A stretch of DNA of 64,000 nucleotides from a virus (IMGVR_UViG_3300033463_000001:147298-211297), one strand, 5' to 3'; positions 1,196 to 22,226 are shown, numbered from the stretch's first letter. Notes: a model not told the origin generated them from the sequence alone. Made by a program: numbers and translations.

Positions 1196-1225
1196 GTTGG
1201 TGCGGATAATTTAGTCCGCACCAGC
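1196..1225 (+). terminator. Hairpin / probable intrinsic terminator after polymerase
   Basis: GTTGGTGCGGA...TCCGCACCAGC stem followed by AAATTTTT. Confidence 0.6.
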
Positions 1226-1239
1226 AAATTTTTAAAAAT

Positions 1240-1290
1240 TCGTCTAAAGGATTTGCTTTTTTCAAAAATTTTACTTATCTTTGCATCGAA
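1240..1290 (+). promoter_or_regulatory. Bacteroidota primary-sigma (early) promoter
   Basis: TTTG (1252-1255), 20-nt spacer, TATCTTTG (1276-1283). Matches the TTTG-N19-21-TAnnTTTG consensus, 25 nt upstream of ATG 1309. Confidence 0.85.
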
Positions 1291-1308: not shown

Positions 1309-1689
1309 ATGAAACAATTACAAAACAACTACACAACCCCTGAGCAATCTCAGAAATTGCTGGAGTTAGGAGTACCTGTATTAACCGCCGATTGCTATTT
1401 TTATATCAAAGAAGTTAACGGTAGAAACATTTGTGATACGCCAAATCTTGTGCCTTATGGTATGGGTGAATATGGTTTAAAACGTTGGTGGACTGAAAGG
1501 AACAACGCACGATACACACCTTGTTGGTCGATTGGCCGGTTACTTGAGCTGGTTAATATATGCATGTATGATATAGACAAACGTGATAAATTTTACACAA
1601 AATTATATTATCATCAAGATGATTTAATTTCGTTTATTCTGTTGACATTACAATATAATGAGGTTGACTTTTCAAAATTGGAGTATTAA
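1309..1689 (+). CDS. Family A paralog 1 (unknown function)
   Basis: NNYTTPEQSQKLLELGVP..ADC / PCWSIGRL / DFSKL. Confidence 0.85.
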   Translation: MKQLQNNYTTPEQSQKLLELGVPVLTADCYFYIKEVNGRNICDTPNLVPYGMGEYGLKRWWTERNNARYTPCWSIGRLLELVNICMYDIDKRDKFYTKLYYHQDDLISFILLTLQYNEVDFSKLEY

Positions 1690-1691
1690 AC

Positions 1692-1877
1692 ATGAATGAA
1701 CATTTAATGACAGTACAAGAATTGTACGACTTCGCTAAAAAGCATGGCTTTGAAGATGCAACGATTTGGATTCCTATTGACTCTAACAACCATTCGTCAG
1801 TTGAAGGGGCTAGATTAACAATCCAATCTAATGGAAATACAAACAAAGGTGTGTATCTATATAAACCACAACAATAA
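1692..1877 (+). CDS. Hypothetical protein
   Basis: 61-aa ORF tightly packed in operon. Confidence 0.65.
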   Translation: MNEHLMTVQELYDFAKKHGFEDATIWIPIDSNNHSSVEGARLTIQSNGNTNKGVYLYKPQQ

Positions 1878-1880
1878 AAT

Positions 1881-2237
1881 ATGAAAACGTTTCAAAACAA
1901 CTACACTACCCCGGAACAGAGCAAGCTTTTGCTGAAGTTAGGGTTACCTGAGGATAGTGCAGACTGTGCACTTTTTGCACCAACACCAAACTCGATGTAT
2001 GAAAAAGAGATTTTGCTGCACGAAGGAACATATTCCAAGATAATTAATCATTACAAAGAGGTTGGTAGTACAATGTCTTATCTTCCATGCTGGTCAGTAG
2101 GCCGGTTAATGGAGATAATCATCATGTGTGATAGTATTATCGTACTTCCGATTAGTGACAAAACGCAGCCGCAGATAGATTGGCTTATCCGTGTTCTGCA
2201 AAAGAATAAGTTTAACTTTTCAAAACTGAATGACTGA
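1881..2237 (+). CDS. Family A paralog 2
   Basis: NNYTTPEQSKLLLKLGLPEDSADC / PCWSVGRL / NFSKL. Confidence 0.85.
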   Translation: MKTFQNNYTTPEQSKLLLKLGLPEDSADCALFAPTPNSMYEKEILLHEGTYSKIINHYKEVGSTMSYLPCWSVGRLMEIIIMCDSIIVLPISDKTQPQIDWLIRVLQKNKFNFSKLND

Positions 2238-2680
2238 TGAAAGGCTTCATTGAGAATCATCCTAAGTTGTTATTCCTTGGCATTATTCAAGGGCTAGCGC
2301 TAGCTGGTATATTTTTCGCCATCGCGGCGCACTATCTCGCACAACCGTTTAGTTTGACTTGGTTCCTATGTCTTGATTGCCCATTGTACGCATTTGTTAT
2401 CTGGGTATGGTGTAAAGCAATCATTCCTTGGTCGCTGAAAATAATCGACACAGAAGGTAAGGCTTCAACCAAGAATGATAATGTATTAACAGCATTTAAT
2501 AAATGTTTGAAGACAATCGAGAGTGCAAAAACACTCCAGCAACTTACGACTGCTCATAAAATGCTGTGCAACTTCAACAAGATGTACATTTACGGAAAAC
2601 CGTACGGTACAGAAAACTGTGTGTACAGAGAGGAATTGTATAGCGCTTATTACAAACAACATTACGCTTTAAAGGCATGA
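2237..2680 (+). CDS. Hypothetical membrane protein
   Basis: Two N-terminal hydrophobic segments; TGATG translational coupling. Confidence 0.7.
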   Translation: MKGFIENHPKLLFLGIIQGLALAGIFFAIAAHYLAQPFSLTWFLCLDCPLYAFVIWVWCKAIIPWSLKIIDTEGKASTKNDNVLTAFNKCLKTIESAKTLQQLTTAHKMLCNFNKMYIYGKPYGTENCVYREELYSAYYKQHYALKA

Positions 2681-3048
2681 AACGGTTTGAAACAAATTAC
2701 ACCAATCCTACGGAGTCTAAAATGCTGATTGATTCCGGATTACCAATCGATACTGCTGATTGTGCTGTACATACCGCTAGTTACGACAATAGTATCACAG
2801 TTATGCACGGTGGCTACACCTACACCAAGTGGATAAACGAGGTGTACGGATGTCAAGAAGTTGCGCCATATCTTCCTTCCTGGTCGGTTGGTCGCTTAAT
2901 AGAAATATTGAAAATTTGTTTAACAGACAAAGAAGCGCTGTTTATTACCTTTGAACTAATAAAAGATAGCATCTTTATTACGAGGAATCTTTGCCAGGTA
3001 TTCAAAGAGTATAACGATGTTATTGACTTCTCAAAACTGAATGATTAA
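2677..3048 (+). CDS. Family A paralog 3
   Basis: TNYTNPTESKMLIDSGLPIDTADC / PSWSVGRL / DFSKL. Confidence 0.85.
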   Translation: MKRFETNYTNPTESKMLIDSGLPIDTADCAVHTASYDNSITVMHGGYTYTKWINEVYGCQEVAPYLPSWSVGRLIEILKICLTDKEALFITFELIKDSIFITRNLCQVFKEYNDVIDFSKLND

Positions 3049-3049
3049 T

Positions 3050-3478
3050 ATGAAAACCAACAAAGAAGAAGCATTCGACAAAATGCTTAATTACGCAGAG
3101 CAACTTGCTCACAACTACGGATTGTTTAACGTAGAAGAGAAAAAGAGTACATTCTGGGCAGATTTCGGTAGCCGGGAGTTAAAATGGACAGACGGTAAAA
3201 ATAAAGGCGTTCGTGTCGAGTTCCGGAGCCGTTTCAGAAACCCGCGAATCGATTTCCGCAACAACAATGACTTTGCTGCTGTTGAGCTTTCACAAGGACA
3301 TCGCGCGACCGGTGAGAAGGATGAGAAGGGTTATGATATGATTGAATATGATGGAATCTATCGTCCGTACGAAATACAAGCATGGGGTGAAGGTGGCCTT
3401 GCAATGGTAAACATCATGTGGCAGGAATTGTCTGCGCTTATTCACGAACCGACAAACGATTTCATCGAGGATGAGTAA
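3050..3478 (+). CDS. Hypothetical protein
   Basis: ORF in operon; alternative ATG at 3041. Confidence 0.7.
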   Translation: MKTNKEEAFDKMLNYAEQLAHNYGLFNVEEKKSTFWADFGSRELKWTDGKNKGVRVEFRSRFRNPRIDFRNNNDFAAVELSQGHRATGEKDEKGYDMIEYDGIYRPYEIQAWGEGGLAMVNIMWQELSALIHEPTNDFIEDE

Positions 3479-3481
3479 GTT

Positions 3482-3643
3482 ATGAATTACGACAGCTATA
3501 AAGAGCAGGCACTGTATGCTTGCGAAGACATCATCAATAATTGCGATAGGATGACAACCGGTAACTTTATGCATAACGTTGCGGCAATCAAACTATTTGC
3601 AAGGACAATCAAAAATTGTGTTGAACACTTAAAAGAGGAGTAA
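3482..3643 (+). CDS. Small hypothetical protein (53 aa, below ORF-track cutoff)
   Basis: Hand-translated MNYDSYKEQALYACEDIINN...LKEE*; exactly fills the gap between neighbours. Confidence 0.6.
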   Translation: MNYDSYKEQALYACEDIINNCDRMTTGNFMHNVAAIKLFARTIKNCVEHLKEE

Positions 3644-3645
3644 AT

Positions 3646-3981
3646 ATGTACTATTACGACGAATTAAAGTTCCACATATGGTCTCTTGTGGTGATATTAG
3701 GACTTTTCTTTGCGTTCTACTTGCCGCTTAATTTCGCTGACAAGCACTACGAAACAATCACTGTTAAGGAGAAGACAGTCGAACCCGGAAGGTATGGTTC
3801 CTATCTTATCATCAGCAAGTACCAAAGTTTTGAAGTGGACGACTCTGATGTATACAGTCAATTGAAAGTAGGAAAGACGTATAAGGTGTACGTTATGGGA
3901 AAACGGAACCATTTCTGGCAAACACACAAACGAATAGTTGGTATTGTAGAAACTTATCCACAAACACGCCAAAAGCAATGA
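3646..3981 (+). CDS. Membrane-anchored hypothetical protein
   Basis: N-terminal TM helix (IWSLVVILGLFFAFYLPL) followed by a beta-rich domain. Confidence 0.7.
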   Translation: MYYYDELKFHIWSLVVILGLFFAFYLPLNFADKHYETITVKEKTVEPGRYGSYLIISKYQSFEVDDSDVYSQLKVGKTYKVYVMGKRNHFWQTHKRIVGIVETYPQTRQKQ

Positions 3982-4082
3982 CAGACAATTCATATTTAGC
4001 ATACCTGAACGCTGCAGGATTTACACTTGTTGGTGGAATGGTTGTTCCTAAAAACTGGAGGAAGCATGAAAAAGTTGAATGA
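3978..4082 (+). CDS. Possible 34-aa peptide
   Basis: ATGA overlap with upstream stop; MTDNSYLAYLNAAGFTLVGGMVVPKNWRKHEKVE*. Confidence 0.35.
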   Translation: MTDNSYLAYLNAAGFTLVGGMVVPKNWRKHEKVE

Positions 4083-4419
4083 CAATTTCACTACACTAAG
4101 GAAGAGTGAAGTACTGCTTGAATTAGGCCTCCCGGAAGATACTGCAGATTGCTACTACGAAATGAGCTACCGTCCGATACGCGCGATTTTGCCTGACGGA
4201 ATCTCTTTTTCCAAACTACCGCAGTACATGGATGATGAGGATGGAGATTTGGATATACTTCCATGCTGGTCTGCCGGACGTCTGATTGACATCTACTGCA
4301 AGTGCATGGGTCATAGCGGCTTCCTTGTTGATAACGAGGATATGATGGGTTCACTTATATTAGGAATTTCATACGCAAAGAAAGCGGGTAGTTTACGGCT
4401 ATCAAAATTGGAGGATTAA
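4066..4419 (+). CDS. Family A paralog 4
   Basis: DNFTTLRKSEVLLELGLPEDTADC / PCWSAGRL / RLSKL; ATG 4066 chosen by alignment with the paralogs. Confidence 0.85.
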   Translation: MKKLNDNFTTLRKSEVLLELGLPEDTADCYYEMSYRPIRAILPDGISFSKLPQYMDDEDGDLDILPCWSAGRLIDIYCKCMGHSGFLVDNEDMMGSLILGISYAKKAGSLRLSKLED

Positions 4420-4421
4420 AT

Positions 4422-4844
4422 ATGGAAATGATAAATCACGAATGCTATGTATCTTTAGAAGTAGCAAAACTATTAAAACAAGCAGGATTTGATTGGCCGT
4501 GTAATCATGCTATTTGTTGTGATTGTACGCACTATCCTAATCTTAAAGAAGGTGATGTATTAGAGTATAACTATCTTGAATGTTCCGAACTAATGGAAGG
4601 AAAGAAACCTCATATGTTACTATGTCCGACACTTGATGTAGCACAAAGATGGTTGAGAGAAGTAAAAGAAATTGAAGTTAATACTCTTTGTGTTTATATA
4701 AATAATGTTAAAAAGTATAGTTATTCTGTATTTGAGGGAAAGTATAATAATGAACGCATTGAAGAAGGTTTTGATACTTTTGAAGAAGCACTTGAAGCAG
4801 GTATCAAGAAAGTACTTGAAATAATTTTAGAGGAAGAGGAATAA
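4422..4844 (+). CDS. Family B paralog 1 (unknown function)
   Basis: HECYVSLEVAKLLKQAGFDW / PTLDVAQRWLRE / DTFEEALEAGIKK; shared with 7706-8104. Confidence 0.8.
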   Translation: MEMINHECYVSLEVAKLLKQAGFDWPCNHAICCDCTHYPNLKEGDVLEYNYLECSELMEGKKPHMLLCPTLDVAQRWLREVKEIEVNTLCVYINNVKKYSYSVFEGKYNNERIEEGFDTFEEALEAGIKKVLEIILEEEE

Positions 4845-4848
4845 GATT

Positions 4849-5463
4849 ATGACAGAAGAAGAATACTTACCAAATACACACAAGAAGCGTTATGCAAAGG
4901 CAACAATCTATCTTGAAATTCCAGAAGATTTGGACGATGAATGCAAGGTAGAACGTGAAATTGAACGGTTACTTGATTATGGCCAATTATATTTCACAGG
5001 ACCTGCTGATGTCATGGTGTCTGGATGCGGTAGTGATGAACCAGAAAAGTTTATCAACCCGGTTGGTTATATTGCACCAGATGGTAAGTTTTATCTTATG
5101 GAGTCATCTGAATGCGGACTTGCTCATATCGAACTTGCTCCATTGATGCTCAAGATATATGGAGATAAATTAGACAGAATATTACTATATGGTGACGGGA
5201 TGAGCATTGACTACGGTTTGGAAAAGGCGGGTTTCGTTAAGGTACATAAGTTTGACATTCGTTATCTTGCACATTTTCAAGCAGGATTTGGTGACTATGA
5301 ACGATACACACCAGATATTACAAATGCACAGTTAGAGTCTATACTTCGTTATTGTAAGTTGTGGAATTATGATGGATGTATTTGCGTGAATGGAAAAAGA
5401 GTGAAGGTATCAACAATCAAGCAAGCAGATAAGTTTGCATTAAGAGAAATGTTTAGTTTATAA
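4849..5463 (+). CDS. Hypothetical phage protein
   Basis: GYIAPDGKFY...H...LEKAGFVKVH pattern seen in many phage proteins of unknown function. Confidence 0.7.
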   Translation: MTEEEYLPNTHKKRYAKATIYLEIPEDLDDECKVEREIERLLDYGQLYFTGPADVMVSGCGSDEPEKFINPVGYIAPDGKFYLMESSECGLAHIELAPLMLKIYGDKLDRILLYGDGMSIDYGLEKAGFVKVHKFDIRYLAHFQAGFGDYERYTPDITNAQLESILRYCKLWNYDGCICVNGKRVKVSTIKQADKFALREMFSL

Positions 5464-5469
5464 ATCATT

Positions 5470-5682
5470 ATGGAAAAGAAAATTACTGCTTGGGCAGCAA
5501 GAGATGAAGATGGGGAAATAACATTGTTTATGACTGATGCACCTTTCAAAGCAAGTGCTACATGGGTACCACAATCATACGATAATTCTTATTTAGAATT
5601 AGATAAAAATGATTTTCCTCAAGTAAAATGGGAAGATGATGAACCAACAGAAGTTGAATTAACAATTAAAATTGGTAAGTAA
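5470..5682 (+). CDS. Family C paralog 1
   Basis: MEKKITAWAARD...FPQVKWEDDEPTEVELTIK; shared with 6406-6627. Confidence 0.8.
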   Translation: MEKKITAWAARDEDGEITLFMTDAPFKASATWVPQSYDNSYLELDKNDFPQVKWEDDEPTEVELTIKIGK

Positions 5683-5683
5683 T

Positions 5684-6121
5684 ATGAGAGAAGATAACCG
5701 ATATGGTTATAAGAGATATATCTTGACAAAGCAGGAAGTGATAGACTCATTCAGTAATCCATATAAAGTTGTATGTCAAGCATCAGGATATGGGGAAAGT
5801 GCTATATTGACGTATGAGAATTTGATGTATTATTTGAAAAACTATCAGCATTATTCTTGGGGAATATGGGATATCAGGTGCTATGAAAGCGCAAAAGAAT
5901 TCATAGAATACGGTAAGAAATATAACTACGCCCTGAAATCATTGAAAGGATATAATCTATATAAATTTCCTGTTGAGGTGTATGACGGAGGAATTTATAT
6001 TAAAGGAATAGACGGATTTGAGTTCGTTTCGTTTGATAATCTACTGAAAGATTATAGATGGGAGGATGGTAGGAAATGTGGAATTATAAACTATGCGACG
6101 CAGTCGATTAGTATTGAATAA
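5684..6121 (+). CDS. Hypothetical protein
   Basis: ATG 5684 directly after upstream stop; 145 aa. Confidence 0.7.
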   Translation: MREDNRYGYKRYILTKQEVIDSFSNPYKVVCQASGYGESAILTYENLMYYLKNYQHYSWGIWDIRCYESAKEFIEYGKKYNYALKSLKGYNLYKFPVEVYDGGIYIKGIDGFEFVSFDNLLKDYRWEDGRKCGIINYATQSISIE

Positions 6122-6123
6122 CT

Positions 6124-6393
6124 ATGAATGATTTAAAAATGACTGGAGATTTCTATGAAGATGTGAAAATAGTCGGAGAGGCTGTTTGTCGTCTTCATGG
6201 AATGTTGGAGTTTCTTGAAAAAGAATGTATTGAAATGGATAAAGGACAGACTGCATCTGATAAATTTATCTATATAAACGATATGAAAAATGAAGTTAGT
6301 AAAGCAGTAGAACAAAGCAAACAATTAATACGCACTTCGGATATAGACCAATATGGCTCGTTGAGTAAATATATTAGGGGATATCTTGGATAA
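6124..6393 (+). CDS. Hypothetical helical protein
   Basis: 89-aa ORF in operon. Confidence 0.65.
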   Translation: MNDLKMTGDFYEDVKIVGEAVCRLHGMLEFLEKECIEMDKGQTASDKFIYINDMKNEVSKAVEQSKQLIRTSDIDQYGSLSKYIRGYLG

Positions 6394-6405
6394 TACAATA
6401 TAATT

Positions 6406-6627
6406 ATGGAAGAGAAAATTACCGCTTGGGCAGCAAGGGATAAATCCGGAATCCTATTTATATACACGCGAAAGCCTACAAAAGGAAAATCTTGCGATGC
6501 GTGGTATCTTAAAGGTGATGAAATCGGTGGTGTTGGGATAGAAATGGATATGAAGAAGTTTCCTGAAGTCAAATGGGAAGATGCCGAACCTACAAAAGTT
6601 GAATTAACAATTAAAATCTGTGAATAA
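6406..6627 (+). CDS. Family C paralog 2
   Basis: MEEKITAWAARD...FPEVKWEDAEPTKVELTIK. Confidence 0.8.
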   Translation: MEEKITAWAARDKSGILFIYTRKPTKGKSCDAWYLKGDEIGGVGIEMDMKKFPEVKWEDAEPTKVELTIKICE

Positions 6628-6628
6628 C

Positions 6629-7093
6629 ATGAAAACAAAGATTATTCCGTTCGACTTGGAGACAGCAAAGAAAATCCAAGCAGGATATATCACAGGTAGT
6701 ATTAAGACAAAGAACGGTCTAACGTGCAAAATAGTATCGTACTGTGACGGTACTGACTTCTTTGTTGAAAGAAAAACAGAAGCAAGTTATTTCCGTTGGT
6801 GCTACCCTTATACCAAAGACGGTAGGTACATAGACGGAAAGAATAACGGAGGTACTGATTACGACCTCGTTCTCGAAGTTGCCGACAATGAACCGCAGTT
6901 CAAGCCATTTGATAAGGTGCTGGTGAGGGACCTACCTACTAACAGATGGTTTATAAATTTATTTTCTCATTACGGGAGACAGGGTAATAAGGTTACTTAT
7001 TACTGTATGTATGGAGAAGATTGGATTTATTGTATCCCTTATGAGGGCAACGAACATCTTGTTGGTACGACCGGTAAACCAAAGGAGGACTGA
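6629..7093 (+). CDS. Conserved Bacteroidota-phage hypothetical protein
   Basis: PFDLETAKKI N-terminus and QFKPFDKVLVRD...CIPYEGNEHLVGTT C-terminal module. Confidence 0.75.
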   Translation: MKTKIIPFDLETAKKIQAGYITGSIKTKNGLTCKIVSYCDGTDFFVERKTEASYFRWCYPYTKDGRYIDGKNNGGTDYDLVLEVADNEPQFKPFDKVLVRDLPTNRWFINLFSHYGRQGNKVTYYCMYGEDWIYCIPYEGNEHLVGTTGKPKED

Positions 7094-7095
7094 TT

Positions 7096-7311
7096 ATGAA
7101 GTATAAAGCAAATTACATTTGGAACATTATATGCACTTTTGTTTTTGTCTTTGTCGCAGTATATGACATAGCGAACGGAAGGATGTGGCAATCTTTGATA
7201 TGGTTTTTTAACTCTTTCCTTACTGTTGCCAGCTGCTTCTTTTTTCAAAACAAAGAGAAGCTAGAAAAGCTGGACGAGATTAAGGAACTACTCAAAAATA
7301 AGGAGGAATGA
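7096..7311 (+). CDS. Small membrane protein
   Basis: Two hydrophobic segments and a charged tail. Confidence 0.7.
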   Translation: MKYKANYIWNIICTFVFVFVAVYDIANGRMWQSLIWFFNSFLTVASCFFFQNKEKLEKLDEIKELLKNKEE

Positions 7312-7709
7312 GTATGAAAAAGTTACAAAACAATTTTACAACTCCGGAGCAGTCAAAGAGACTGTTGGAGTTAGGAGTGCCTGCGGATAGCGCGGATTGT
7401 TACTATGATTGGTACGGTATGGAAATGGAACCACATCCATATAAATTTGTAGCAGTATTCAATGGAGATGATACTTTTACTATTCTAAAAGATAGATTTA
7501 AAAGAGAACTTCTCCCCTGTTGGTCTGTTGGCAGACTGATTGAGGTGTATCTTACATGTGCTTTAGAATATCATCCTTATGATGATTTTTACACAGAGAC
7601 ACCAAGTTTACATCTTATGGCTTTTGATAAAGATAGGCTTATCGAGGAGGTTATTGAGATAATGTCCGAGGACAAAATGGACTTTTCAAAATTGGAAAAT
7701 AAATTATGA
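7308..7709 (+). CDS. Family A paralog 5
   Basis: NNFTTPEQSKRLLELGVPADSADC / PCWSVGRL / DFSKL. Confidence 0.85.
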   Translation: MSMKKLQNNFTTPEQSKRLLELGVPADSADCYYDWYGMEMEPHPYKFVAVFNGDDTFTILKDRFKRELLPCWSVGRLIEVYLTCALEYHPYDDFYTETPSLHLMAFDKDRLIEEVIEIMSEDKMDFSKLENKL

Positions 7710-8104
7710 ACACACATGAATCTTATGTAAGTATAGAAACTGCTAAACTGTTAAAAGAAGCTGGGTTTGATTGGTATTGTGAAATGGTATACTGTAATGA
7801 CGACCCGGCGATTATCGACAACTCCCATTGCCCGTGTAATTGGAATAGCTGTGATAATAACTATTCAGCTCCGACACTTTCTGTTGCGCAGAAGTGGCTG
7901 AGAGATACGAAAACGCATGATGTGTATGTATTCCCAACTACCAATATCAAGCGCGAAAATGTATACCAATACGGTATCAAATGCCCGAAAGGCACTTTGT
8001 GGGTTCCAGGCCAGCCAAGTACGGCGATGTATGACACTTACGAAGAGTCTTTTGAAGAAGGTATAAAGAAATGTTTAACAATAATATTAAATGAAAAGAA
8101 ATGA
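7706..8104 (+). CDS. Family B paralog 2
   Basis: HESYVSIETAKLLKEAGFDW / APTLSVAQKWLRD / DTYEESFEEGIKK. Confidence 0.8.
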   Translation: MNTHESYVSIETAKLLKEAGFDWYCEMVYCNDDPAIIDNSHCPCNWNSCDNNYSAPTLSVAQKWLRDTKTHDVYVFPTTNIKRENVYQYGIKCPKGTLWVPGQPSTAMYDTYEESFEEGIKKCLTIILNEKK

Positions 8105-8283
8105 GAGCATTTGAAATCAGAACAAAACGAAGCGATTATCCATTCCTTATAATAGCATCAAGCTACAAGAACGCAATAGACATTCTTCGTAGTACAAAAG
8201 AAATATACGATATTGACATTATTATGATACATCAATTAGATGATTATAAAAATGGTCACATCTTCATCGAAGGTACGAAATGA
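8101..8283 (+). CDS. Hypothetical protein
   Basis: 60 aa, ATGA-coupled. Confidence 0.6.
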   Translation: MRAFEIRTKRSDYPFLIIASSYKNAIDILRSTKEIYDIDIIMIHQLDDYKNGHIFIEGTK

Positions 8284-8462
8284 AAGCAAAAGACTTAGCG
8301 GATATACTATTGAAGCATCCTGACTCTGATGTACGCGTTGGAATACAACGCTATATTCCAAGATGCCGAGAGTATAGTTATGAATATGTTTATTTAACCG
8401 ACGAGTTAATTGACATTAACGACGAATATAATGAAATTTTGCTAGGAAAGGAGTATGAGTGA
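8280..8462 (+). CDS. Hypothetical protein
   Basis: 60 aa, MKAKDLADILLKHPDSDV; ATGA-coupled. Confidence 0.6.
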   Translation: MKAKDLADILLKHPDSDVRVGIQRYIPRCREYSYEYVYLTDELIDINDEYNEILLGKEYE

Positions 8463-8845
8463 TGAAAAGACTACAAAACAACTTCACGACACAGGAGCAG
8501 TCGAAACGACTATTGGAGCTTGGAGTACCTGCTAATAGCGCTGATATGTATTATGGCTTATTCGTAGAAGCAGTAATATATACCGGATATGATGATGTGC
8601 CAAAAGGTAAAACATTTTACTGTCACGAACCAAGCGTAAGGCATATTGATTCAAACGGAACTGTATGTGAACTCAAAAGAACAGATATACCATGCTGGTC
8701 CGTCGGACGGTTGATAGAGATATTTAATATCTGTAATTGTTATAGTGCGGATTGTGATTTGACAGCAACTCCTCAAGGTATGGTAGATGAAATCGAAACT
8801 GCTATTATGGATGATATATGGGATTTTTCAAAATTGAAGGACTAA
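8462..8845 (+). CDS. Family A paralog 6
   Basis: NNFTTQEQSKRLLELGVPANSADM / PCWSVGRL / DFSKL. Confidence 0.85.
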   Translation: MKRLQNNFTTQEQSKRLLELGVPANSADMYYGLFVEAVIYTGYDDVPKGKTFYCHEPSVRHIDSNGTVCELKRTDIPCWSVGRLIEIFNICNCYSADCDLTATPQGMVDEIETAIMDDIWDFSKLKD

Positions 8846-8847
8846 TT

Positions 8848-9183
8848 ATGGATGCCATATACTTTTACACACTTGCAGGAGAGGAAGTGTTTGTGTATAT
8901 CGAACACGGAATTTGCAGACTTACTTTCGATAGAAAATGTCCAGATGTATGTTTCGTAAGCACACTCATCGTAAACGAATCAAGTCGCCAGCATGGAATA
9001 GGTAAGCAATTACTTCGCGCAGCGGAGTTGATAGCAAAAAGAAAATGTTGTAATCGCGTCTCTTTGCAAGTCGAAAATAACTCTTGGAAAAAAGAGTGGT
9101 ATGAGAGAGAAGGCTATGATGTAATTGCAGACGGATATGATGAGGGTATGATTATTATGTCAAAAGAATTAAATGAGGACTGA
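8848..9183 (+). CDS. GNAT-family acetyltransferase
   Basis: Acetyl-CoA motif A LIVNESSRQHGIGKQLL (R-x-x-G-x-G), then VSLQV...WYEREGY; 111 aa. Confidence 0.85.
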   Translation: MDAIYFYTLAGEEVFVYIEHGICRLTFDRKCPDVCFVSTLIVNESSRQHGIGKQLLRAAELIAKRKCCNRVSLQVENNSWKKEWYEREGYDVIADGYDEGMIIMSKELNED

Positions 9184-9184
9184 T

Positions 9185-9478
9185 ATGAACGAATCAATTA
9201 TAAACCAAGAACATGTTGCTTTACTAAAACATATGTTTATAGATAATGGCTCATTATGGTATATAATAGCAATTATTATTCTCTTATTCTCATTCAAACT
9301 CTTCTTCTTTTGGGAAGGACGAGCTAAATTATGGGTGAGACTGCCTATTATAAACATTTTAACGTTTATAGTATTGCTTTTACTTGGAGTGATTGAGGAG
9401 TTCTATCTTACTTGTCACCCAGAAGAAAGAACTCCATATTTTAGGACGAGTATATTTCAATTATTTTTTAACAAATAA
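9185..9478 (+). CDS. Membrane protein
   Basis: Two TM-like segments. Confidence 0.7.
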   Translation: MNESIINQEHVALLKHMFIDNGSLWYIIAIIILLFSFKLFFFWEGRAKLWVRLPIINILTFIVLLLLGVIEEFYLTCHPEERTPYFRTSIFQLFFNK

Positions 9479-9482
9479 TATT

Positions 9483-9854
9483 ATGAAAGAACTACAAAGG
9501 AATTACACAACACCGGAACAAAGTCAGATTCTGATTGAGTTAGGGATACCATTGGATAGTGCTGATATGTATTATGCACGCATGAAGCACGATGATTTCG
9601 AATTGCCTAAAGTCATATGGGAATGTTATTCAAAGAGTACAAACCTTCATCCGTACGTATTTACATATCTTCCGTGTTGGTCTGTAGGACGCCTGATGGA
9701 AATATACGATACGTGCTTCAAGTATCCGGAAAGTAGAAGCTCTTGGTGTGCTATCACAAAACTTTCAGGAGTTCCATATGTAAACTACGTACTAGATGCT
9801 TTCCAAAAAGCTGCTAGCGATAATTTGTTGGACTTTTCCAAAATAATGGATTGA
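9483..9854 (+). CDS. Family A paralog 7
   Basis: RNYTTPEQSQILIELGIPLDSADM / PCWSVGRL / DFSKI; start reassigned to 9483 by alignment. Confidence 0.85.
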   Translation: MKELQRNYTTPEQSQILIELGIPLDSADMYYARMKHDDFELPKVIWECYSKSTNLHPYVFTYLPCWSVGRLMEIYDTCFKYPESRSSWCAITKLSGVPYVNYVLDAFQKAASDNLLDFSKIMD

Positions 9855-9856
9855 TT

Positions 9857-10228
9857 ATGAATGTAACAGATTTAATGATTGGCGACATCGTTCTCGCAGG
9901 TGGAAAACCGATACACGTAACGCTTGCAACATTGAGTTGTGGTGTAGATGTAAAACCGATGCCGCTTACAGCGGAAATACTTGAAAAGAACTGGCATGGC
10001 TCCGGACTTGGATGGTATGACGTCTTTATGATGTGGGAAGGAGAATACGACGAGCACAACTTTGCTACTAAATTCTTCGCAGTCCGTGATGCATATCGTT
10101 ATCCTCACTTGCCGAGGTTTTCCATAATCAAAGACGATAAAGATAATGTCATCAAAGAGATTAAGTACGTACACGAGCTGCAACATTGGCTCAAGGTACT
10201 TGGTATTGAGAAGGAGATTGTAGTATGA
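9857..10228 (+). CDS. Conserved phage hypothetical protein
   Basis: DLMIGDIV...VKPMPLTAEILEKN...IKYVHELQHWL pattern common in Bacteroidota phages. Confidence 0.75.
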   Translation: MNVTDLMIGDIVLAGGKPIHVTLATLSCGVDVKPMPLTAEILEKNWHGSGLGWYDVFMMWEGEYDEHNFATKFFAVRDAYRYPHLPRFSIIKDDKDNVIKEIKYVHELQHWLKVLGIEKEIVV

Positions 10229-10386
10229 GTAAAAGTTTACGCAAACGCATCATTCGGCAGTTGGCCGGTGGCGATAAAGCAAAAGAGGATGAGTTGAGCA
10301 AATATTACGGTACAACTCAACTACAAGACTTAAAAGTTATTATTCAAAAACACAAAGAAGAACAATTATGTCAGAAGAAGAATTGA
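10225..10386 (+). CDS. Small hypothetical protein (53 aa, below cutoff)
   Basis: Hand-translated MSKSLRKRIIRQLAGGDKAKEDE...; ATGA overlap. Confidence 0.5.
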   Translation: MSKSLRKRIIRQLAGGDKAKEDELSKYYGTTQLQDLKVIIQKHKEEQLCQKKN

Positions 10387-10616
10387 AAGCCTTTGCTGCA
10401 GATACAAAGCGAATGATTGAGAACGGTGAGAAGTTTCTGAAAGAAGAAGCAGCGATGCAGCGCACCATCGATTTTCTCATCAATGAGTATCACACCAATA
10501 AACGCTGGTTCCGTGAGGAGCCCGGACATGTCACAATCGAAGATATTATCCGAATGACCGCAACACACACCTGGGCTAGCAAGCGCCAGTTTGACTACGA
10601 CCAGAGTAAAAAATGA
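10368..10616 (+). CDS. Hypothetical protein
   Basis: 82-aa ORF in operon. Confidence 0.65.
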   Translation: MSEEELKAFAADTKRMIENGEKFLKEEAAMQRTIDFLINEYHTNKRWFREEPGHVTIEDIIRMTATHTWASKRQFDYDQSKK

Positions 10617-10641
10617 ATTACCAACTCAATACTGTTAATCT

Positions 10642-11028
10642 ATGGGAACGTTACATTGTAATTTCACAAACAAAGGCCAAAGCAACCGCTTGATTGCTGT
10701 TGGCCTACCTGCATCTACAGCAGACTGCGCAATGTGGCAAGGTGGTGATATCAAGGTAAACCCGCACAATGTCGGATTCGACACATTCTTGAAAGAATAT
10801 GTTGATGAAATGGGTCACCAGTATTATACACCCGCTTGGTCTTTTGGAAGACTTATGGAAATTTTCGACCAGTGTTACGAAGGTGAAGATGGTTGGGATG
10901 AATGGCCAAAAACAGGCGAAATGCTTGAATATGCAGACAGTCTAGTCGAGTATATCGTTAAGATATATGAAAGAGGCTTTGAGCGAGGTGGTTTTGACTT
11001 TAGTAAATTAACCCATGAAAAAGCATGA
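10642..11028 (+). CDS. Family A paralog 8
   Basis: CNFTNKGQSNRLIAVGLPASTADC / PAWSFGRL / DFSKL. Confidence 0.85.
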   Translation: MGTLHCNFTNKGQSNRLIAVGLPASTADCAMWQGGDIKVNPHNVGFDTFLKEYVDEMGHQYYTPAWSFGRLMEIFDQCYEGEDGWDEWPKTGEMLEYADSLVEYIVKIYERGFERGGFDFSKLTHEKA

Positions 11029-11207
11029 CAGAAGAAACGAAACAGAAGGTAACCGAAATACTTAATATCGCCACAAAGGTGATTCTTGACAGGTTCCCGG
11101 AATACACTGACAAAGACGACGAGCTGAAGGCCTGTTTGAATGGTTTCATCTACGGAGCACAGTGGATACAAGAACAAATTTATCTTAAAAGCGATGCAAA
11201 AGATTAA
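11025..11207 (+). CDS. Hypothetical protein
   Basis: 60 aa, ends GFIYGAQWIQEQ. Confidence 0.6.
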   Translation: MTEETKQKVTEILNIATKVILDRFPEYTDKDDELKACLNGFIYGAQWIQEQIYLKSDAKD

Positions 11208-11337
11208 ATGCCATACATGCGGGCGCGACTCGAAGCTTGTTTCTGAATACGTTGACGATATACATGGTCTAACTTACAAGTTTCAATGCGGAAAAGGCCA
11301 TGTAAGCATATTGCGAGAATTAGAACGAACTGTATGA
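11194..11337 (+). CDS. Small zinc-ribbon-like protein
   Basis: MQKIKCHTCG...QCGKGH (CxxC...CxxxH). Confidence 0.55.
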   Translation: MQKIKCHTCGRDSKLVSEYVDDIHGLTYKFQCGKGHVSILRELERTV

Positions 11338-11489
11338 AAAAGGTAGGCGTAACAGCAAGTTTCGGCTATAAGCAACCATTTGAGACTCGCATAATTGAGA
11401 TAGACGACAGGCTTGTCAACCATCCTAATCTATCAGAGATATTGGACGATATGCTAAAAGCAGAAATAATTGAATATCACATTATATAA
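11334..11489 (+). CDS. Hypothetical protein
   Basis: ATGA-coupled start, 51 aa. Confidence 0.55.
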   Translation: MKKVGVTASFGYKQPFETRIIEIDDRLVNHPNLSEILDDMLKAEIIEYHII

Positions 11490-11499
11490 CTGAGTAAAC

Positions 11500-12054
11500 A
11501 TGGAACATTTAATATTGCGATGCAAACACTGTCACAAGGAGTATGTGTATTGCACGTACGGGAACGAGGACGGATGCAGCAGGGATTATTGTTCGGAATG
11601 CCAGAAAGCGATAGACGAAGCGCTTAAAGCGATTCCGGTAAAGTACGAAGCTAGATACACGGAAATTCATAACGATAAGATATTTGATGTACTTGCATCC
11701 ACAAAACGGAACTATCTTGAATCGTTAATCGGCACCGACTATCATGTTTCATATCATTTTGCTGTGCCATTTAGCCAGTATGACAATGTAGAGCTATACG
11801 AACACAACCGGCGGAGATATCTAGTAGAATGGAACGATGATGCACAAGACGAAAAACACGTGTATCTTTATAGTGAGTTTGATTTAATCAACCAAACTTT
11901 TACCGGTAAACCATGGACAGATGGAATAAACTGTCGTGATTACTATAGTAAACACAGACCAGTGCATGCCAAAGATATTTCTGTTCAAGGAATGACTCCT
12001 CCAATTGGAAAGATATCATTTATGATGCCTGTTACTCAAAACGCGAATAGTTAA
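11500..12054 (+). CDS. Hypothetical protein with N-terminal Zn-finger-like Cys cluster
   Basis: CKHC...YC...C...YCSEC. Confidence 0.7.
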   Translation: MEHLILRCKHCHKEYVYCTYGNEDGCSRDYCSECQKAIDEALKAIPVKYEARYTEIHNDKIFDVLASTKRNYLESLIGTDYHVSYHFAVPFSQYDNVELYEHNRRRYLVEWNDDAQDEKHVYLYSEFDLINQTFTGKPWTDGINCRDYYSKHRPVHAKDISVQGMTPPIGKISFMMPVTQNANS

Positions 12055-12056
12055 GT

Positions 12057-12302
12057 ATGGTATATTTAATTCTATCTCTTATATTCGGAATTGCTTGTAT
12101 ATTGTTCATTCGCTACGACAAACGTGAGCAGATGTGGCGTACGCTACGTGCCGGCCGCTCGATACAAGTTCAAAGAGGCGACAAATGGTGCTCAAAGCAA
12201 ATCATTGATGTTAGCGAGGACAGCATTAAGATACAACACCATAAGCGCATGACGAAAAGTGAGTTTCTGTCTAAGTTTGATGGCCAACGTTTAACACTAT
12301 AA
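12057..12302 (+). CDS. Membrane-anchored hypothetical protein
   Basis: N-terminal TM segment MVYLILSLIFGIACILFI. Confidence 0.65.
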   Translation: MVYLILSLIFGIACILFIRYDKREQMWRTLRAGRSIQVQRGDKWCSKQIIDVSEDSIKIQHHKRMTKSEFLSKFDGQRLTL

Positions 12303-12310
12303 AATTATAC

Positions 12311-12952
12311 ATGGAGAAAGTTTTAAGAATATGTGATGTACAAAAATACGGGTTGGACAAACTCGAAAGCATCACGCGCGATAAATTAGAAGGATATACG
12401 CGCATAGGCGTAGATGCCTTTTCTGGAAACCAGAATCTTGTTTATATAGATATTCCGGAGTCAGTTACAACAATTGACCAAGATGCATTTAGGGGATGTG
12501 CGCATCTTGTGTTTGTCAACCTACCAAGGCACAATCATTTGACAATTGGTAGCGGCGCGTTCAGGGATTGCCGCATGTTGACACGTGTTGAGTTTCCGGA
12601 ACATATCGAAAACGCAGGATATGGAGTCTTTCAGGGAACAGCGCTATTGCGTGTGAACCACGGAAAGTTGTGTGAGGGTGGTATTATTTTCCATGCTGCA
12701 GTTGCAACAGATGTCAAGCTTGCGCGAGGATGTGTGGTTACAGAAGGTTTATTTGCTAACAACCAGGCTATCCGAAGCTTATATATACCAAATACAATAG
12801 AGCGAATTGGTGATTACGCATTCAGTAGGTGCTCGAATTTAACAACAGTAAAGATTCAGAGACGCCATACAAACAAACCTCTAAAGCTTGGTGCTTTTGC
12901 GTTTCACAAGGCCGGTGGAATATATCCTATTAACGTAGAATTTGTTGACTAA
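12311..12952 (+). CDS. BspA-type (TpLRR / LRR_5) leucine-rich repeat protein
   Basis: Repeats IGVDAFSGNQNLVYIDIPESVTTIDQDAFRGCAHL, IGSGAFRDCRML, IGDYAFSRCSNL; no signal peptide. Confidence 0.9.
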   Translation: MEKVLRICDVQKYGLDKLESITRDKLEGYTRIGVDAFSGNQNLVYIDIPESVTTIDQDAFRGCAHLVFVNLPRHNHLTIGSGAFRDCRMLTRVEFPEHIENAGYGVFQGTALLRVNHGKLCEGGIIFHAAVATDVKLARGCVVTEGLFANNQAIRSLYIPNTIERIGDYAFSRCSNLTTVKIQRRHTNKPLKLGAFAFHKAGGIYPINVEFVD

Positions 12953-12953
12953 C

Positions 12954-13346
12954 ATGAATACATATTTCATTTCCGGGCATCGGAACATCACAGAGAAAGA
13001 GTTTCGAGACAACTATTGCGCATTAATCGACTATGTTCTTGAAAACGACAAAGGATGCCATTTCGTTATTGGTGACTACTACGGTGTAGACATCATGGCG
13101 CAAGACTACCTGATGGACGAACGTAAAATAAGTCCAAAGCGAGTTACAGTGTATCACATGTTTGACGCGCCACGCAATAAAAACAAAAAGATTACCAAGA
13201 CAGTAGGAGGCTTCAAAACGGATTCCGAGCGTGATACTGCTATGACAAATGCTTCAATTGCCGACATTGCATTTGTTCGTGACGAGCTTGTCATGTCAGG
13301 TACAGGCGAGAACATACTACGCAGGCATCTTTTGAAGAAAGACTGA
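12954..13346 (+). CDS. SLOG-superfamily (DprA/YspA-like) nucleotide-binding protein
   Basis: FISGHR, VIGDYYGVDIMA, ERDTAMTNAS, SGTGENI: the SLOG strand-G-x-R, G-x-x-x-G-x-D, R-D/N and GT motif series. Confidence 0.7.
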   Translation: MNTYFISGHRNITEKEFRDNYCALIDYVLENDKGCHFVIGDYYGVDIMAQDYLMDERKISPKRVTVYHMFDAPRNKNKKITKTVGGFKTDSERDTAMTNASIADIAFVRDELVMSGTGENILRRHLLKKD

Positions 13347-13349
13347 ATC

Positions 13350-13375
13350 GGTTGGTGGTTTCACCAACCTTTTTT
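13350..13375 (+). terminator. Intrinsic terminator ending the early accessory operon
   Basis: GGTTGGTG-GTTT-CACCAACC perfect 8-bp stem + T6. Confidence 0.85.
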
Positions 13376-13631: not shown

Positions 13632-13647
13632 CAGGTAATGCAGATTG

Positions 13648-13673
13648 GAGGTGGCTTTTTGCCGCCTCTTTTT
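13648..13673 (+). terminator. Intrinsic terminator
   Basis: GAGGTGGC-TTTTT-GCCGCCTC + T5. Confidence 0.8.
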
Positions 13674-22169: not shown

Positions 22170-22226
22170 TAATTTTCGATACAAAGATAAGTGAAATTTT
22201 TCAAATTTACAAATCCTTTGGACGAT
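22170..22226 (-). promoter_or_regulatory. Bacteroidota primary-sigma (early) promoter, minus strand
   Basis: TTTG (22213-22210), 20-nt spacer, TATCTTTG (22189-22182); near copy of 1240-1290. Confidence 0.85.

Follow-up and report, generated by a model that had tools for sequence, protein, structure and literature searches.

The window analysed here, a 64,000-nucleotide stretch of phage DNA, carries between positions 1309 and 11028 an array of eight related genes. They are eight of 13 ancient paralogues in this genome. The family to which they belong, here called family A, is large and unannotated, and its members are acidic proteins of about 120 aa that stand alone. Each protein holds two variable segments, V1 and V2, and for either segment well over a hundred sequence types exist that are unrelated to each other. 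Phages swap V1 and V2 independently, recombining within the conserved blocks and at the gene ends. Taken as a whole, we read family A as a cassette-swapping family of early, cytoplasmic host-targeting modules, an explanation to which we assign a probability of about 0.45.

The genome is that of a 327-kb, T4-like rumen/gut myovirus, whose accessory regions are full of small ORFans. The array lies in an accessory unit after the DNA polymerase gene, 13 kb upstream of the tail sheath gene. All eight ORFs (117-133 aa) reported by a first-pass annotation were present with their starts, on the plus strand: copy 1 at 1309..1689 (126 aa), copy 2 at 1881..2237 (118 aa), copy 3 at 2677..3048 (123 aa), copy 4 at 4066..4419 (117 aa), copy 5 at 7308..7709 (133 aa, or 131 aa from ATG 7314), copy 6 at 8462..8845 (127 aa), copy 7 at 9483..9854 (123 aa) and copy 8 at 10642..11028 (128 aa), which is the most divergent of the eight. 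The first position is in each case the best ATG, with 7308 or 7314 for copy 5. Five copies are located outside the array, and the 13 are spread over three of the four accessory islands, which also house further paralogue families. The 13 proteins (111-133 aa, pI 4.3-6.1) were all matched by the family A profile (E values from 1e-22 to 1e-47); copies scored at 1e-37 to 1e-47, far above chance. Across the family the net charge averages -6.5 and is negative in 95% of members; a signal or membrane segment is not evident.

Just past the DNA polymerase stop codon at 1188, a terminator-like hairpin with a 12-bp stem and a T run is found (1196..1225, plus strand). The head of the array's unit is marked by a Bacteroidota-type promoter motif (1252..1283, plus strand; TTTG, 20 nt, TAnnTTTG), sitting in an extended consensus with about 30 occurrences genome-wide. 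From this motif the unit runs over 35 genes with a median gap of 2 nt (30 of 35 gaps are ≤10 nt), and it probably ends at the first plus-strand terminator-like hairpin downstream (13350..13369), beyond which a second one lies at 13647-13669. The suggestion that one promoter serves the region was borne out: a single motif was found in the unit, at the head of the tightly packed genes. A sigma-70 consensus scan gave no enrichment (48 sites, 46 expected), the Bacteroidota-type motif being informative instead. Family A proteins would be made early, a timing read from the promoter motif alone, in the cytoplasm and by the host RNA polymerase.

Cargo genes lie between the family A copies. They had been described as unrelated between units, which does not hold for two genes of a second family, family B, for a pair of 70-aa genes at 5470 and 6406, or for the paralogous genes at 6629-7093. 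The description is better worded as cargo drawn from a gene pool common to small Bacteroidales phages, with up to 93% identity. A GNAT acetyltransferase gene (8818..9183, plus strand) is 93% identical to a gene of a Bacteroidales MAG (L137), where the homologue directly follows a family A gene. Family B has 12 copies in the genome, among them 4422..4844 (plus strand, 140 aa), which starts 2 nt after copy 4 and matches phrog_12005 (unknown function), and 7706..8104 (plus strand, 132 aa), which overlaps the stop codon of copy 5 by 4 nt. Both families occur in the islands of the same genome and alternate with cargo, and their motif layout looks analogous. The similarity of their profiles is nevertheless not significant, and the two are taken as different families: hhalign of A against B gave a probability of 2.7% (E 0.017), over the N-terminal 30 columns only.

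The conserved part of family A consists of three blocks: 31 aa at the N-terminus (the N block), the core block P-C-W-S-V-G-R-L-I-E-I-x-x-x-C, and D-F-S-K-L at the C-terminus. In an alignment of the eight array copies 18 columns are invariant, and G-x-P, A-D, W-S-x-G-R-L and S-K are among them, as previously noted. The residues of the first-block motif were also right, but its spacing was not, the actual pattern being N-[YF]-T-x4-S. The five copies outside the array vary at some of these residues (S to T, R to Q, S to L), and genome copies also accept A to V at a motif position. Scaffold identity among the 13 copies is 58%. Recounting the first 29 codons of copies 5 and 6 gave 12 identical codons, 13 synonymous and 4 non-synonymous changes, exactly as counted before, and the accompanying view that the scaffold is under purifying selection and the copies are not fresh is upheld by a scaffold dN/dS of ∼0.14 and by saturation of synonymous sites in 46 of 78 pairs. 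About 15 polar positions in the frame of ∼55 residues are conserved at ≥90%. Strict invariance is confined to L17 in an alignment of 142 sequences, and to L, P, W and R in a second alignment.

AlphaFold2 models of copies 5 and 6 (pLDDT 80 and 69, respectively) agree on a helix at 11-19, a strand at 29-34, another strand ahead of the W-S-x-G-R-L helix, and a late helix; the termini are paired in both, and V1 is unlike between the two. The three blocks are thus predicted to form one compact alpha/beta frame. Prediction of a copy 5 homodimer yielded a median score of 0.40 (mark 0.42), which counts neither for nor against a dimer. The alpha-beta-beta-beta-alpha order of the frame suggested a dsRBD-like fold, which was returned by no fold search and was discarded for that reason.

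V1 and V2, ∼33 aa each and 19-59 aa long in the genome copies, make up half of the protein. Among the 13 copies their mean identity is 16.5% for V1 and 14.4% for V2, compared to 16.8% and 14.8% after shuffling, in line with the earlier statement that the intervening segments differ completely. They are, however, not the hypervariable loops that had been proposed; they are discrete cassettes, each conserved in itself and reshuffled by recombination. The 13 copies carry 13 distinct V1 types and 13 distinct V2 types. Across 267 family members, the two cassettes assort independently: the correlation between V1 and V2 identity is 0.05, and 1,021 pairs are ≥70% identical in V1 and <30% in V2, with 170 pairs showing the reverse and 55 being high in both. 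One V1 type occurs together with 29 different V2 types and, conversely, one V2 type has 10 V1 partners. V1 type 0 keeps a mean within-type identity of 86.6% across backgrounds. Recombinant relatives exist for five of the phage's own copies. The V2 of copy 5 is 100% identical to that of protein P0004, whose V1 is unrelated, and the V1 type of copy 7 is shared by six other proteins, the seven carriers having seven V2 types. Most combinations come from metagenome assemblies, in which the conserved blocks could make some contigs chimeric; for one recombinant protein (P0166), two samples yielded independent assemblies. A single tree of 265 members had too few columns and was dropped; it is not meaningful because the cassettes recombine. 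DGRs were considered as an origin of the variability and rejected, since blastn of the 26 V1 and V2 DNA segments against the genome returned only self-matches and one chance 22-nt match, and the segments also differ in length.

DNA breakpoints were mapped in three pairs, one of them involving copy 2, and placed the crossovers in conserved blocks and at gene ends. Copy 2 is 88% identical in DNA to an otherwise unrelated metagenome contig (L134) over 1880 to 2116, a stretch that opens 1 nt ahead of the ATG and closes midway through the core block. Homology between contigs starts or ends exactly at the start codon, block borders and stop codon. The idea that the blocks mediate shuffling therefore stands for the family, but not as a recent process within this genome. 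Here the blocks are 60-79% identical in DNA with exact runs of not more than about 17 nt, which makes them a poor substrate for homologous exchange. Strains at 98-100% identity (including L133 and L229) have an unchanged order, no cassette change and evenly spread SNPs, and therefore give no sign of ongoing diversification. Beyond such strains synteny is not constant: each phage examined has its own arrangement of genes around family A. In one MAG, a remnant consists of the N block alone fused to foreign sequence.

Family A comprises at least 2,662 clusters at 90% identity and 1,731 representatives at 50% identity, none named beyond 'hypothetical protein'. Its carriers are phages and prophages of Bacteroidales from rumen and gut. 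Relatives were found in MAGs of Paludibacteraceae and other Bacteroidales, and distantly in Parabacteroides phages. That no function is recognisable was confirmed by single scans of the eight copies and 142 members, without a significant or recurrent family in Pfam-A, PHROGs v4, NCBIfam 20 or PADLOC 2.0. A Foldseek search of the family A model against the PDB gave a best E of 0.87, a wide VIA-align search a best Z of 3.7 over 52 residues, and BFVD only an uncharacterised phage protein (E 0.15). A sequence-profile search of the PDB reached E 0.14, and likewise nothing usable for family B or the related group described below. No match was obtained among 50,697 GenBank phage records by megablast of the region or tblastn of copy 5. 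A search for fused forms among longer proteins found one weak 255-aa match; it covered just 8,000 scored candidates and is a weak test. Around family A in the phages examined, no neighbouring gene is conserved that could point to a partner. With the DNA polymerase as query, only relatives at ≤42% identity were found, and these lacked family A nearby. The closest homologue found (42%) lies on a 360-kb contig without any family A copy; the family is therefore dispensable. Exact-protein look-ups returned the same genome (L132), the strains L133 and L229 at 98-99.5% identity, and contigs of ∼2 kb or less.

A fixed frame with two recombining, exchangeable inserts makes family A a good candidate set of host-targeting proteins. 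Its members probably act early in the cytoplasm as binders or inhibitors whose two specificity modules can be exchanged. The jumbo phage has gathered 13 such genes, which lie in long, tightly packed units of small accessory genes. In the proposed mechanism, the frame with its some 15 nearly invariant polar residues would serve a function that stays constant, be it just folding or the contact to an unchanging partner, and V1 and V2 would be two autonomous modules binding variable proteins of the host or of rival phages, for example defence components. If the modules bind such proteins, the 13 copies would be a repertoire that widens the range of strains the phage can overcome. In a more specific form, which we hold only tentatively and consider on the unlikely side, the protein would be a combinatorial two-site adaptor: the invariant polar face of the frame would dock on a constant partner, either a host hub or a phage component, and V1 and V2 would each independently recognise different variable host proteins, for example sensors or effectors of defence.

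The cassettes might instead track phage proteins, with family A serving phage-phage competition or phage-internal regulation, for instance by excluding or disarming related co-infecting phages or resident prophages. Prophage-like regions of Bacteroidales MAGs commonly carry the family, with one or two copies in each genome, and IMG/VR classifies one carrier as a provirus. In small phages it is found among replication-proximal accessory genes. Moreover, the neighbour gene pool shared at up to 93% identity indicates that small phages and the jumbo phage evidently meet in the same cells. However, no toxin, nuclease or repressor-like gene was linked to family A at the examined loci, none of the defence-like families of PADLOC was matched, and nothing separates this explanation from the host-target one; we consider it doubtful, and less probable than the adaptor.

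Lower still in our estimate stands the view that the blocks are recombination linkers, a portable homology for inserting, deleting and exchanging cargo, with the protein being of little consequence. The exact borders of contig homology, the variable gene order and the N-block remnant are consistent with it, and there is a precedent in the promoter/stem-loop cassettes of T4 (PMC2839356). Yet the blocks are conserved as protein and not as DNA, as the 13 synonymous against 4 non-synonymous changes, the saturated dS and the dN/dS show; their DNA similarity within the genome is low, and the array is stable in near-identical strains. Conservation of cassette types across backgrounds, as for V1 type 0, further indicates that the protein is under selection. 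Least probable of all is a small enzyme or ligand-binding domain whose site is formed by the polar residues T, E, Q, S, D, S, R, E, D, S and K and whose target is tuned by the cassettes: polar conservation does exceed the usual need of packing, but strict invariance is limited to the few residues given above, genome copies tolerate substitutions at conserved positions, a conserved His or metal-binding pattern is lacking, and neither Foldseek against the PDB nor VIA-align matched an enzyme fold.

The only relatives found in cultivated phages are a gut phage group of 132-147-aa proteins with the motif P-A-F-T-V-A-D-L-L and WAX16940.1 of Parabacteroides phage PD691P3, which are likewise unannotated. 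They share the N and core blocks with family A (hhalign probability 99% over 68 columns for the group; tblastn identity of 38% over residues 9-81 for the Parabacteroides phage relative), but have another C-terminal half, lack the D-F-S-K-L end and occur as single copies. The MGF360/505 families of ASFV and the host-range families of poxviruses are also arrays of divergent, old paralogues in variable genome regions of large viruses, and modulate host immunity and host range; unlike family A, they belong to eukaryotic viruses, have unrelated folds and are not known to show such sub-gene cassette exchange. With phage anti-defence proteins, a functional class and not a homology family, family A shares small size and acidity.

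Among T4-type phages, the gp38 adhesins offer a parallel. Their short conserved motifs bound hypervariable segments that are exchanged modularly, giving combinatorial specificity (PMC3157838). Family A resembles them in that conserved motifs delimit exchangeable variable modules. However, gp38 sits on the virion as an adhesin for outer-membrane receptors and has glycine-rich linkers (PMC3157838), whereas family A has two independently assorting cassettes, blocks that are not glycine-rich, a location in an accessory unit, and neither sequence nor fold similarity to gp38. PeSL cassettes of T4-type hyperplastic regions are non-coding, intergenic promoter/stem-loop elements (PMC2839356, PMC4122927). 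As in family A, the modules exchanged in an accessory region of a T4-like myovirus are bordered by a conserved element that recurs; in family A this element is a protein-coding gene under purifying selection, and the unit has a single promoter motif, at its head.

That the two cassettes assort independently points with unusual clarity to selection for specificity, here in a small protein with no evident signal or membrane segment. The family counts thousands of genes from rumen and gut phages, yet it is without an entry in any family library, and the structure searches matched no related structure. The jumbo phage builds its accessory islands by amassing genes from a pool shared with small temperate phages. 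If the adaptor form is true, phages would re-arm themselves with ready-made cassettes from a pool of hundreds, the 13 genes and 26 cassettes of this phage would amount to a broad-spectrum counter-defence, and family A would represent a widespread, previously undescribed class of anti-defence proteins, modular in build, in phages of Bacteroidales. Counter-defence in these phages is little known, and family A provides a concrete candidate for a new host-targeting or anti-defence class.

Family A comprises small acidic proteins, of which this phage has several. Each of the eight ORFs of the window array was found on the + strand at the start assigned in the first-pass annotation (1309, 1881, 2677, 4066, 7308 or 7314, 8462, 9483 and 10642; copies 1-8). 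The three shared blocks described there were recovered in an alignment of the eight copies with 18 invariant columns: an N block, N-[YF]-T ... S-x-x-L-x-x-x-G-x-P-x-x-[ST]-A-D-[CM], a core block, P-x-W-S-x-G-R-L ... C, and a C-terminal block, [FL]-S-K-[LI]. A profile built from the eight copies retrieved 13 copies in the genome record (327,393 bp; CheckV completeness 93%), of which the window spans 147,298-211,297. The phage is a myovirus and encodes a tail sheath and baseplate proteins. The five copies outside the window are located at ~25, 28, 257, 259.6 and 260.5 kb of the genome on the - strand. All 13 proteins are acidic (pI 4.3-6.1) and share 25-58% pairwise identity. The borders of N, V1, core (K), V2 and C were set in every copy by alignment to the family profile. 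Among the genome's copies, the scaffold of conserved blocks has a mean identity of 58%, and the variable segments V1 (16.5%) and V2 (14.4%) are at the level of shuffled segments (16.8% and 14.8%); the two intervening segments thus differ fully, as had been stated. An earlier hand count of codons between copies 5 and 6 proved exact (12 identical, 13 synonymous, 4 non-synonymous). Synonymous sites of the scaffold are saturated in 46 of 78 copy pairs, and dN/dS is ~0.14 in pairs with estimable dS, so the copies are old paralogues under purifying selection and not fresh duplicates.

In separate comparisons of V1 and V2 over the 35,511 pairs formed by 267 family members, V1 identity was correlated with V2 identity at 0.05. 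V1 was at least 70% identical and V2 below 30% in 1,021 pairs, the converse applied to 170 pairs, and both segments reached at least 70% in 55. Clustering at 60% identity sorted the V1 segments into 165 types and the V2 segments into 178. The 48 proteins with the commonest V1 type carry 29 different V2 types, and the 12 with the commonest V2 type carry 10 different V1 types. The initial description of V1 and V2 as hypervariable loops was not borne out. In proteins of the commonest V1 type, conservation of V1 matches that of the scaffold (86.6% and 86.1% identity, respectively) and V2 is at background (19%); V1 and V2 are therefore conserved units that get reshuffled rather than fast-drifting loops.

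Mapping of crossovers in relatives, which the first-pass annotation had proposed, was successful in three DNA comparisons. Loci L146 and L147 are 91-95% identical from the ATG into the G-R-L-I-E-I codons, have no similarity in V2 and regain identity over the F-S-K-L-E-E codons and stop. Loci L150 and L230 share ~75% identity in the N block, have an unrelated V1 and are 85-97% identical over core, V2 and C, ending 6 nt past the stop. The match of locus L134 to the window (88%) is confined to 1880-2116, starting 1 nt ahead of the copy 2 ATG and stopping in mid core block, and the flanks are unrelated. For five copies of this phage, recombinant relatives were identified: copy 5 with P0004 (V1 17%, V2 100%), copy 2 with P0005 (94%, 17%), copy 4 with P0144 (79%, 23%), copy 7 with P0152 (77%, 16%) and copy 13 with P0250 (14%, 55%). 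Recombinant protein P0166 is present in independent assemblies from two samples, and several others are on record from 4-8 contigs each, which argues against a purely chimeric origin of the recombinants, although some may be chimeras. A diversity-generating retroelement was rejected as the cause: the genome contains no further, template-like copy of any V segment, and V segment lengths range from 19 to 59 residues. The two closest known styles, to neither of which family A belongs, are gp38 adhesins, where conserved motifs bound swappable hypervariable segments (PMC3157838), and PeSL-mediated shuffling in T4-type hyperplastic regions (PMC2839356, PMC4122927). The evolutionary mode of family A is a variant of a known one.

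Searching with the profile of the eight copies, as had also been proposed, revealed a large family whose copy number varies between carriers. With sequences clustered at 50% identity, 1,731 cluster representatives matched, 487 of them with E below 1e-10; clustering at 90% identity gave 2,662 matching clusters. Nearly all members have 105-140 aa and no name beyond 'hypothetical protein'; among 8,000 candidates scored for longer proteins there was one weak 255-aa match only. The eight copies and 142 members gave no Pfam, PHROG, NCBIfam or PADLOC family match, in line with the earlier failure to recognise a function for the family, and family A is new to these four libraries. No paper describing it was found, without a literature search aimed at the family. 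Copy 5 had no tblastn match in 50,697 GenBank phage records, and for a typical member the sole match was a hypothetical protein in Parabacteroides phages PD691P3 and PD691P6 (38% over residues 9-81). A related group of 132-147-aa proteins has the N and core blocks in common (hhalign probability 99%) and a different C-terminal half.

Among species genomes, rumen and gut MAGs of Paludibacteraceae and other Bacteroidales carry the family, with 1-2 copies each. Two MAGs labelled Caryophanon and Scatosoma are also carriers, and the gene context of the Caryophanon locus (L141) almost matches that of metagenome contig L049. Ordinary phage contigs have a single family A gene amid small accessory genes, near a replication-type HTH protein, a DUF551 gene or a DNA methylase; other metagenome contigs have tandem sets of 2-4 copies. 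The 13 copies of this phage are the largest set among the genomes and contigs examined. Family A is absent from the 360-kb contig with the closest DNA-polymerase homologue found (42% identity). A remnant of a family A gene in a Paludibacteraceae MAG (L144:2041-2124), whose N block is 96% identical to residues 1-28 of copy 5, ends right after S-A-D-C and is joined there to an unrelated 308-aa gene in another frame.

An all-against-all protein comparison of the genome showed that its four accessory islands also hold other paralogue families, namely B (12 copies genome-wide, matching phrog_12005 of unknown function), C (9 copies, DUF551-like) and D (4 copies), and several pairs. Family B genes 4422-4844 and 7706-8104 directly follow family A copies 4 and 5 (2-nt gap and 4-nt overlap, respectively). 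Their layout is analogous to that of family A, with an N-terminal helix motif, an S-A-P-T-L-x-V-A-Q-x-W-L-R-E motif and a C-terminal helix; relatedness of the two families was not significant (hhalign E 0.017).

The cargo between the copies had been described as unrelated. It recurs as homologues in small Bacteroidales phages, where members of families B, C and D stand beside family A and the family A neighbours are homologues of the island's own genes; its order is different in every locus. The island has thus been gathered from a mobile accessory-gene pool shared among phages. Pfam matches among the cargo were limited to a GNAT acetyltransferase (8818-9183) and a BspA-type leucine-rich-repeat protein (12311-12952; PF13306, E 2e-28), the latter near the end of the array's unit. 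The GNAT protein is 93% identical to L137:3581-3916 of an uncultured Bacteroidales MAG, where the gene likewise directly follows a family A gene; identity and position point to a recent exchange between jumbo phage and small prophage. The product of a 204-aa gene of unknown function (4849-5463) is 88% identical to L051:1226-1843, on a 166-kb metagenome contig with members of families A, B and C. The suggestion that the conserved blocks mediate shuffling applies to family history, with no visible current process in the array: DNA identity of the blocks inside the genome is 60-79% with exact runs of at most ~17 nt, a 98% identical strain has unchanged order over the 2.1 kb compared and evenly spread SNPs, and nothing differs in an identical genome of the same sample set (L132) or a 99.5% identical strain (L133). 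At both ends, paralogues 5470-5682 and 6406-6627 (70-73 aa) contain repeats (D5 and D8) that are 81-89% identical in DNA. No two family A copies come near this similarity, which suggests that the pair was recently duplicated or homogenised by gene conversion.

The array begins directly 3' of the DNA polymerase gene. A strong terminator-like hairpin (1196-1225, +) separates this gene from a Bacteroidota-type promoter motif (1252-1283, +; TTTG, 20 nt, TAnnTTTG), after which copy 1 follows. The motif belongs to an extended consensus, approximately ATTTGCATAT-N-AAAAATTTTACTTATCTTTG with Bacteroidota -33 and -7 elements, which has ~30 sites genome-wide (at most 4 mismatches), probably marks units read by host RNA polymerase and has its sole + strand site in the window's first 13 kb here. 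A second window site is located at 22182-22213 (-), and many copies are spaced by 1-2 kb at 45-73 kb of the genome (- strand). The hairpin, the promoter motif, the 35 genes of 1309-13346 with a median gap of 2 nt and the terminator-like hairpins downstream (13350 and 13647) make it plausible that host RNA polymerase transcribes the region as a single unit; the promoter type would place it early. The middle of the array (4001-10000) has a G+C content of 0.36-0.37, compared to 0.41-0.46 in the downstream structural genes, and a high GC skew. The gene call for DNA polymerase B (1,251 aa; L132:6125-9880) is divided into two ORFs of 745 and 506 aa in L133:4875-8629; a frameshift, a misassembly or a genuine split of the gene could account for this. 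Just upstream of the polymerase gene, ~4 kb before the window start, lies a gene for S-adenosylmethionine lyase (PF23780; L132:5114-5830), a known type of anti-restriction function.

Structures were predicted for copy 5 (142-sequence alignment; pLDDT 80, pTM 0.74) and copy 6 (121 sequences; pLDDT 69, pTM 0.58). Both models have in common a terminal beta bridge at residue 8, a helix at 11-19, a strand at 29-34, the P-C-W strand, the G-R-L-I-E-I helix, a late helix within V2 and a short C-terminal helix. A second bridge at residue 122 of the copy 5 model indicates that the C-terminal block would pack against the N terminus. V1 is unlike in the two models: copy 5 has a hairpin and a helix there, and copy 6 shows nothing but low-confidence strands. 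No convincing fold match was obtained with Foldseek against PDB (best E 0.87), VIA-align against 48,161 chains (best Z 3.7 over 52 residues) or in BFVD (an uncharacterised phage protein, E 0.15).

What the analysis shows is the conserved frame, the two independently assorting cassettes, the acidity (net charge averages -6.5 across the family and is negative in 95% of members), the stand-alone architecture, the accessory units behind a host-type promoter motif and the non-redundant set of 13. Independent assortment implies that V1 and V2 need no match to each other, so each cassette would have to pack on the frame and act alone. The ~15 polar frame residues that are at least 90% conserved suggest that the frame makes a constant contact besides folding. 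Phage-phage competition or regulation as the role of family A is unlikely. A recombination linker is less probable again, and an enzyme or ligand binder is the least credible of the three. What probability remains belongs to something else. The most economical reading, to which we give a probability of about 45%, is that family A is an early cytoplasmic binder or inhibitor, in which V1 and V2 would serve as exchangeable specificity modules against variable host (or rival-phage) proteins.
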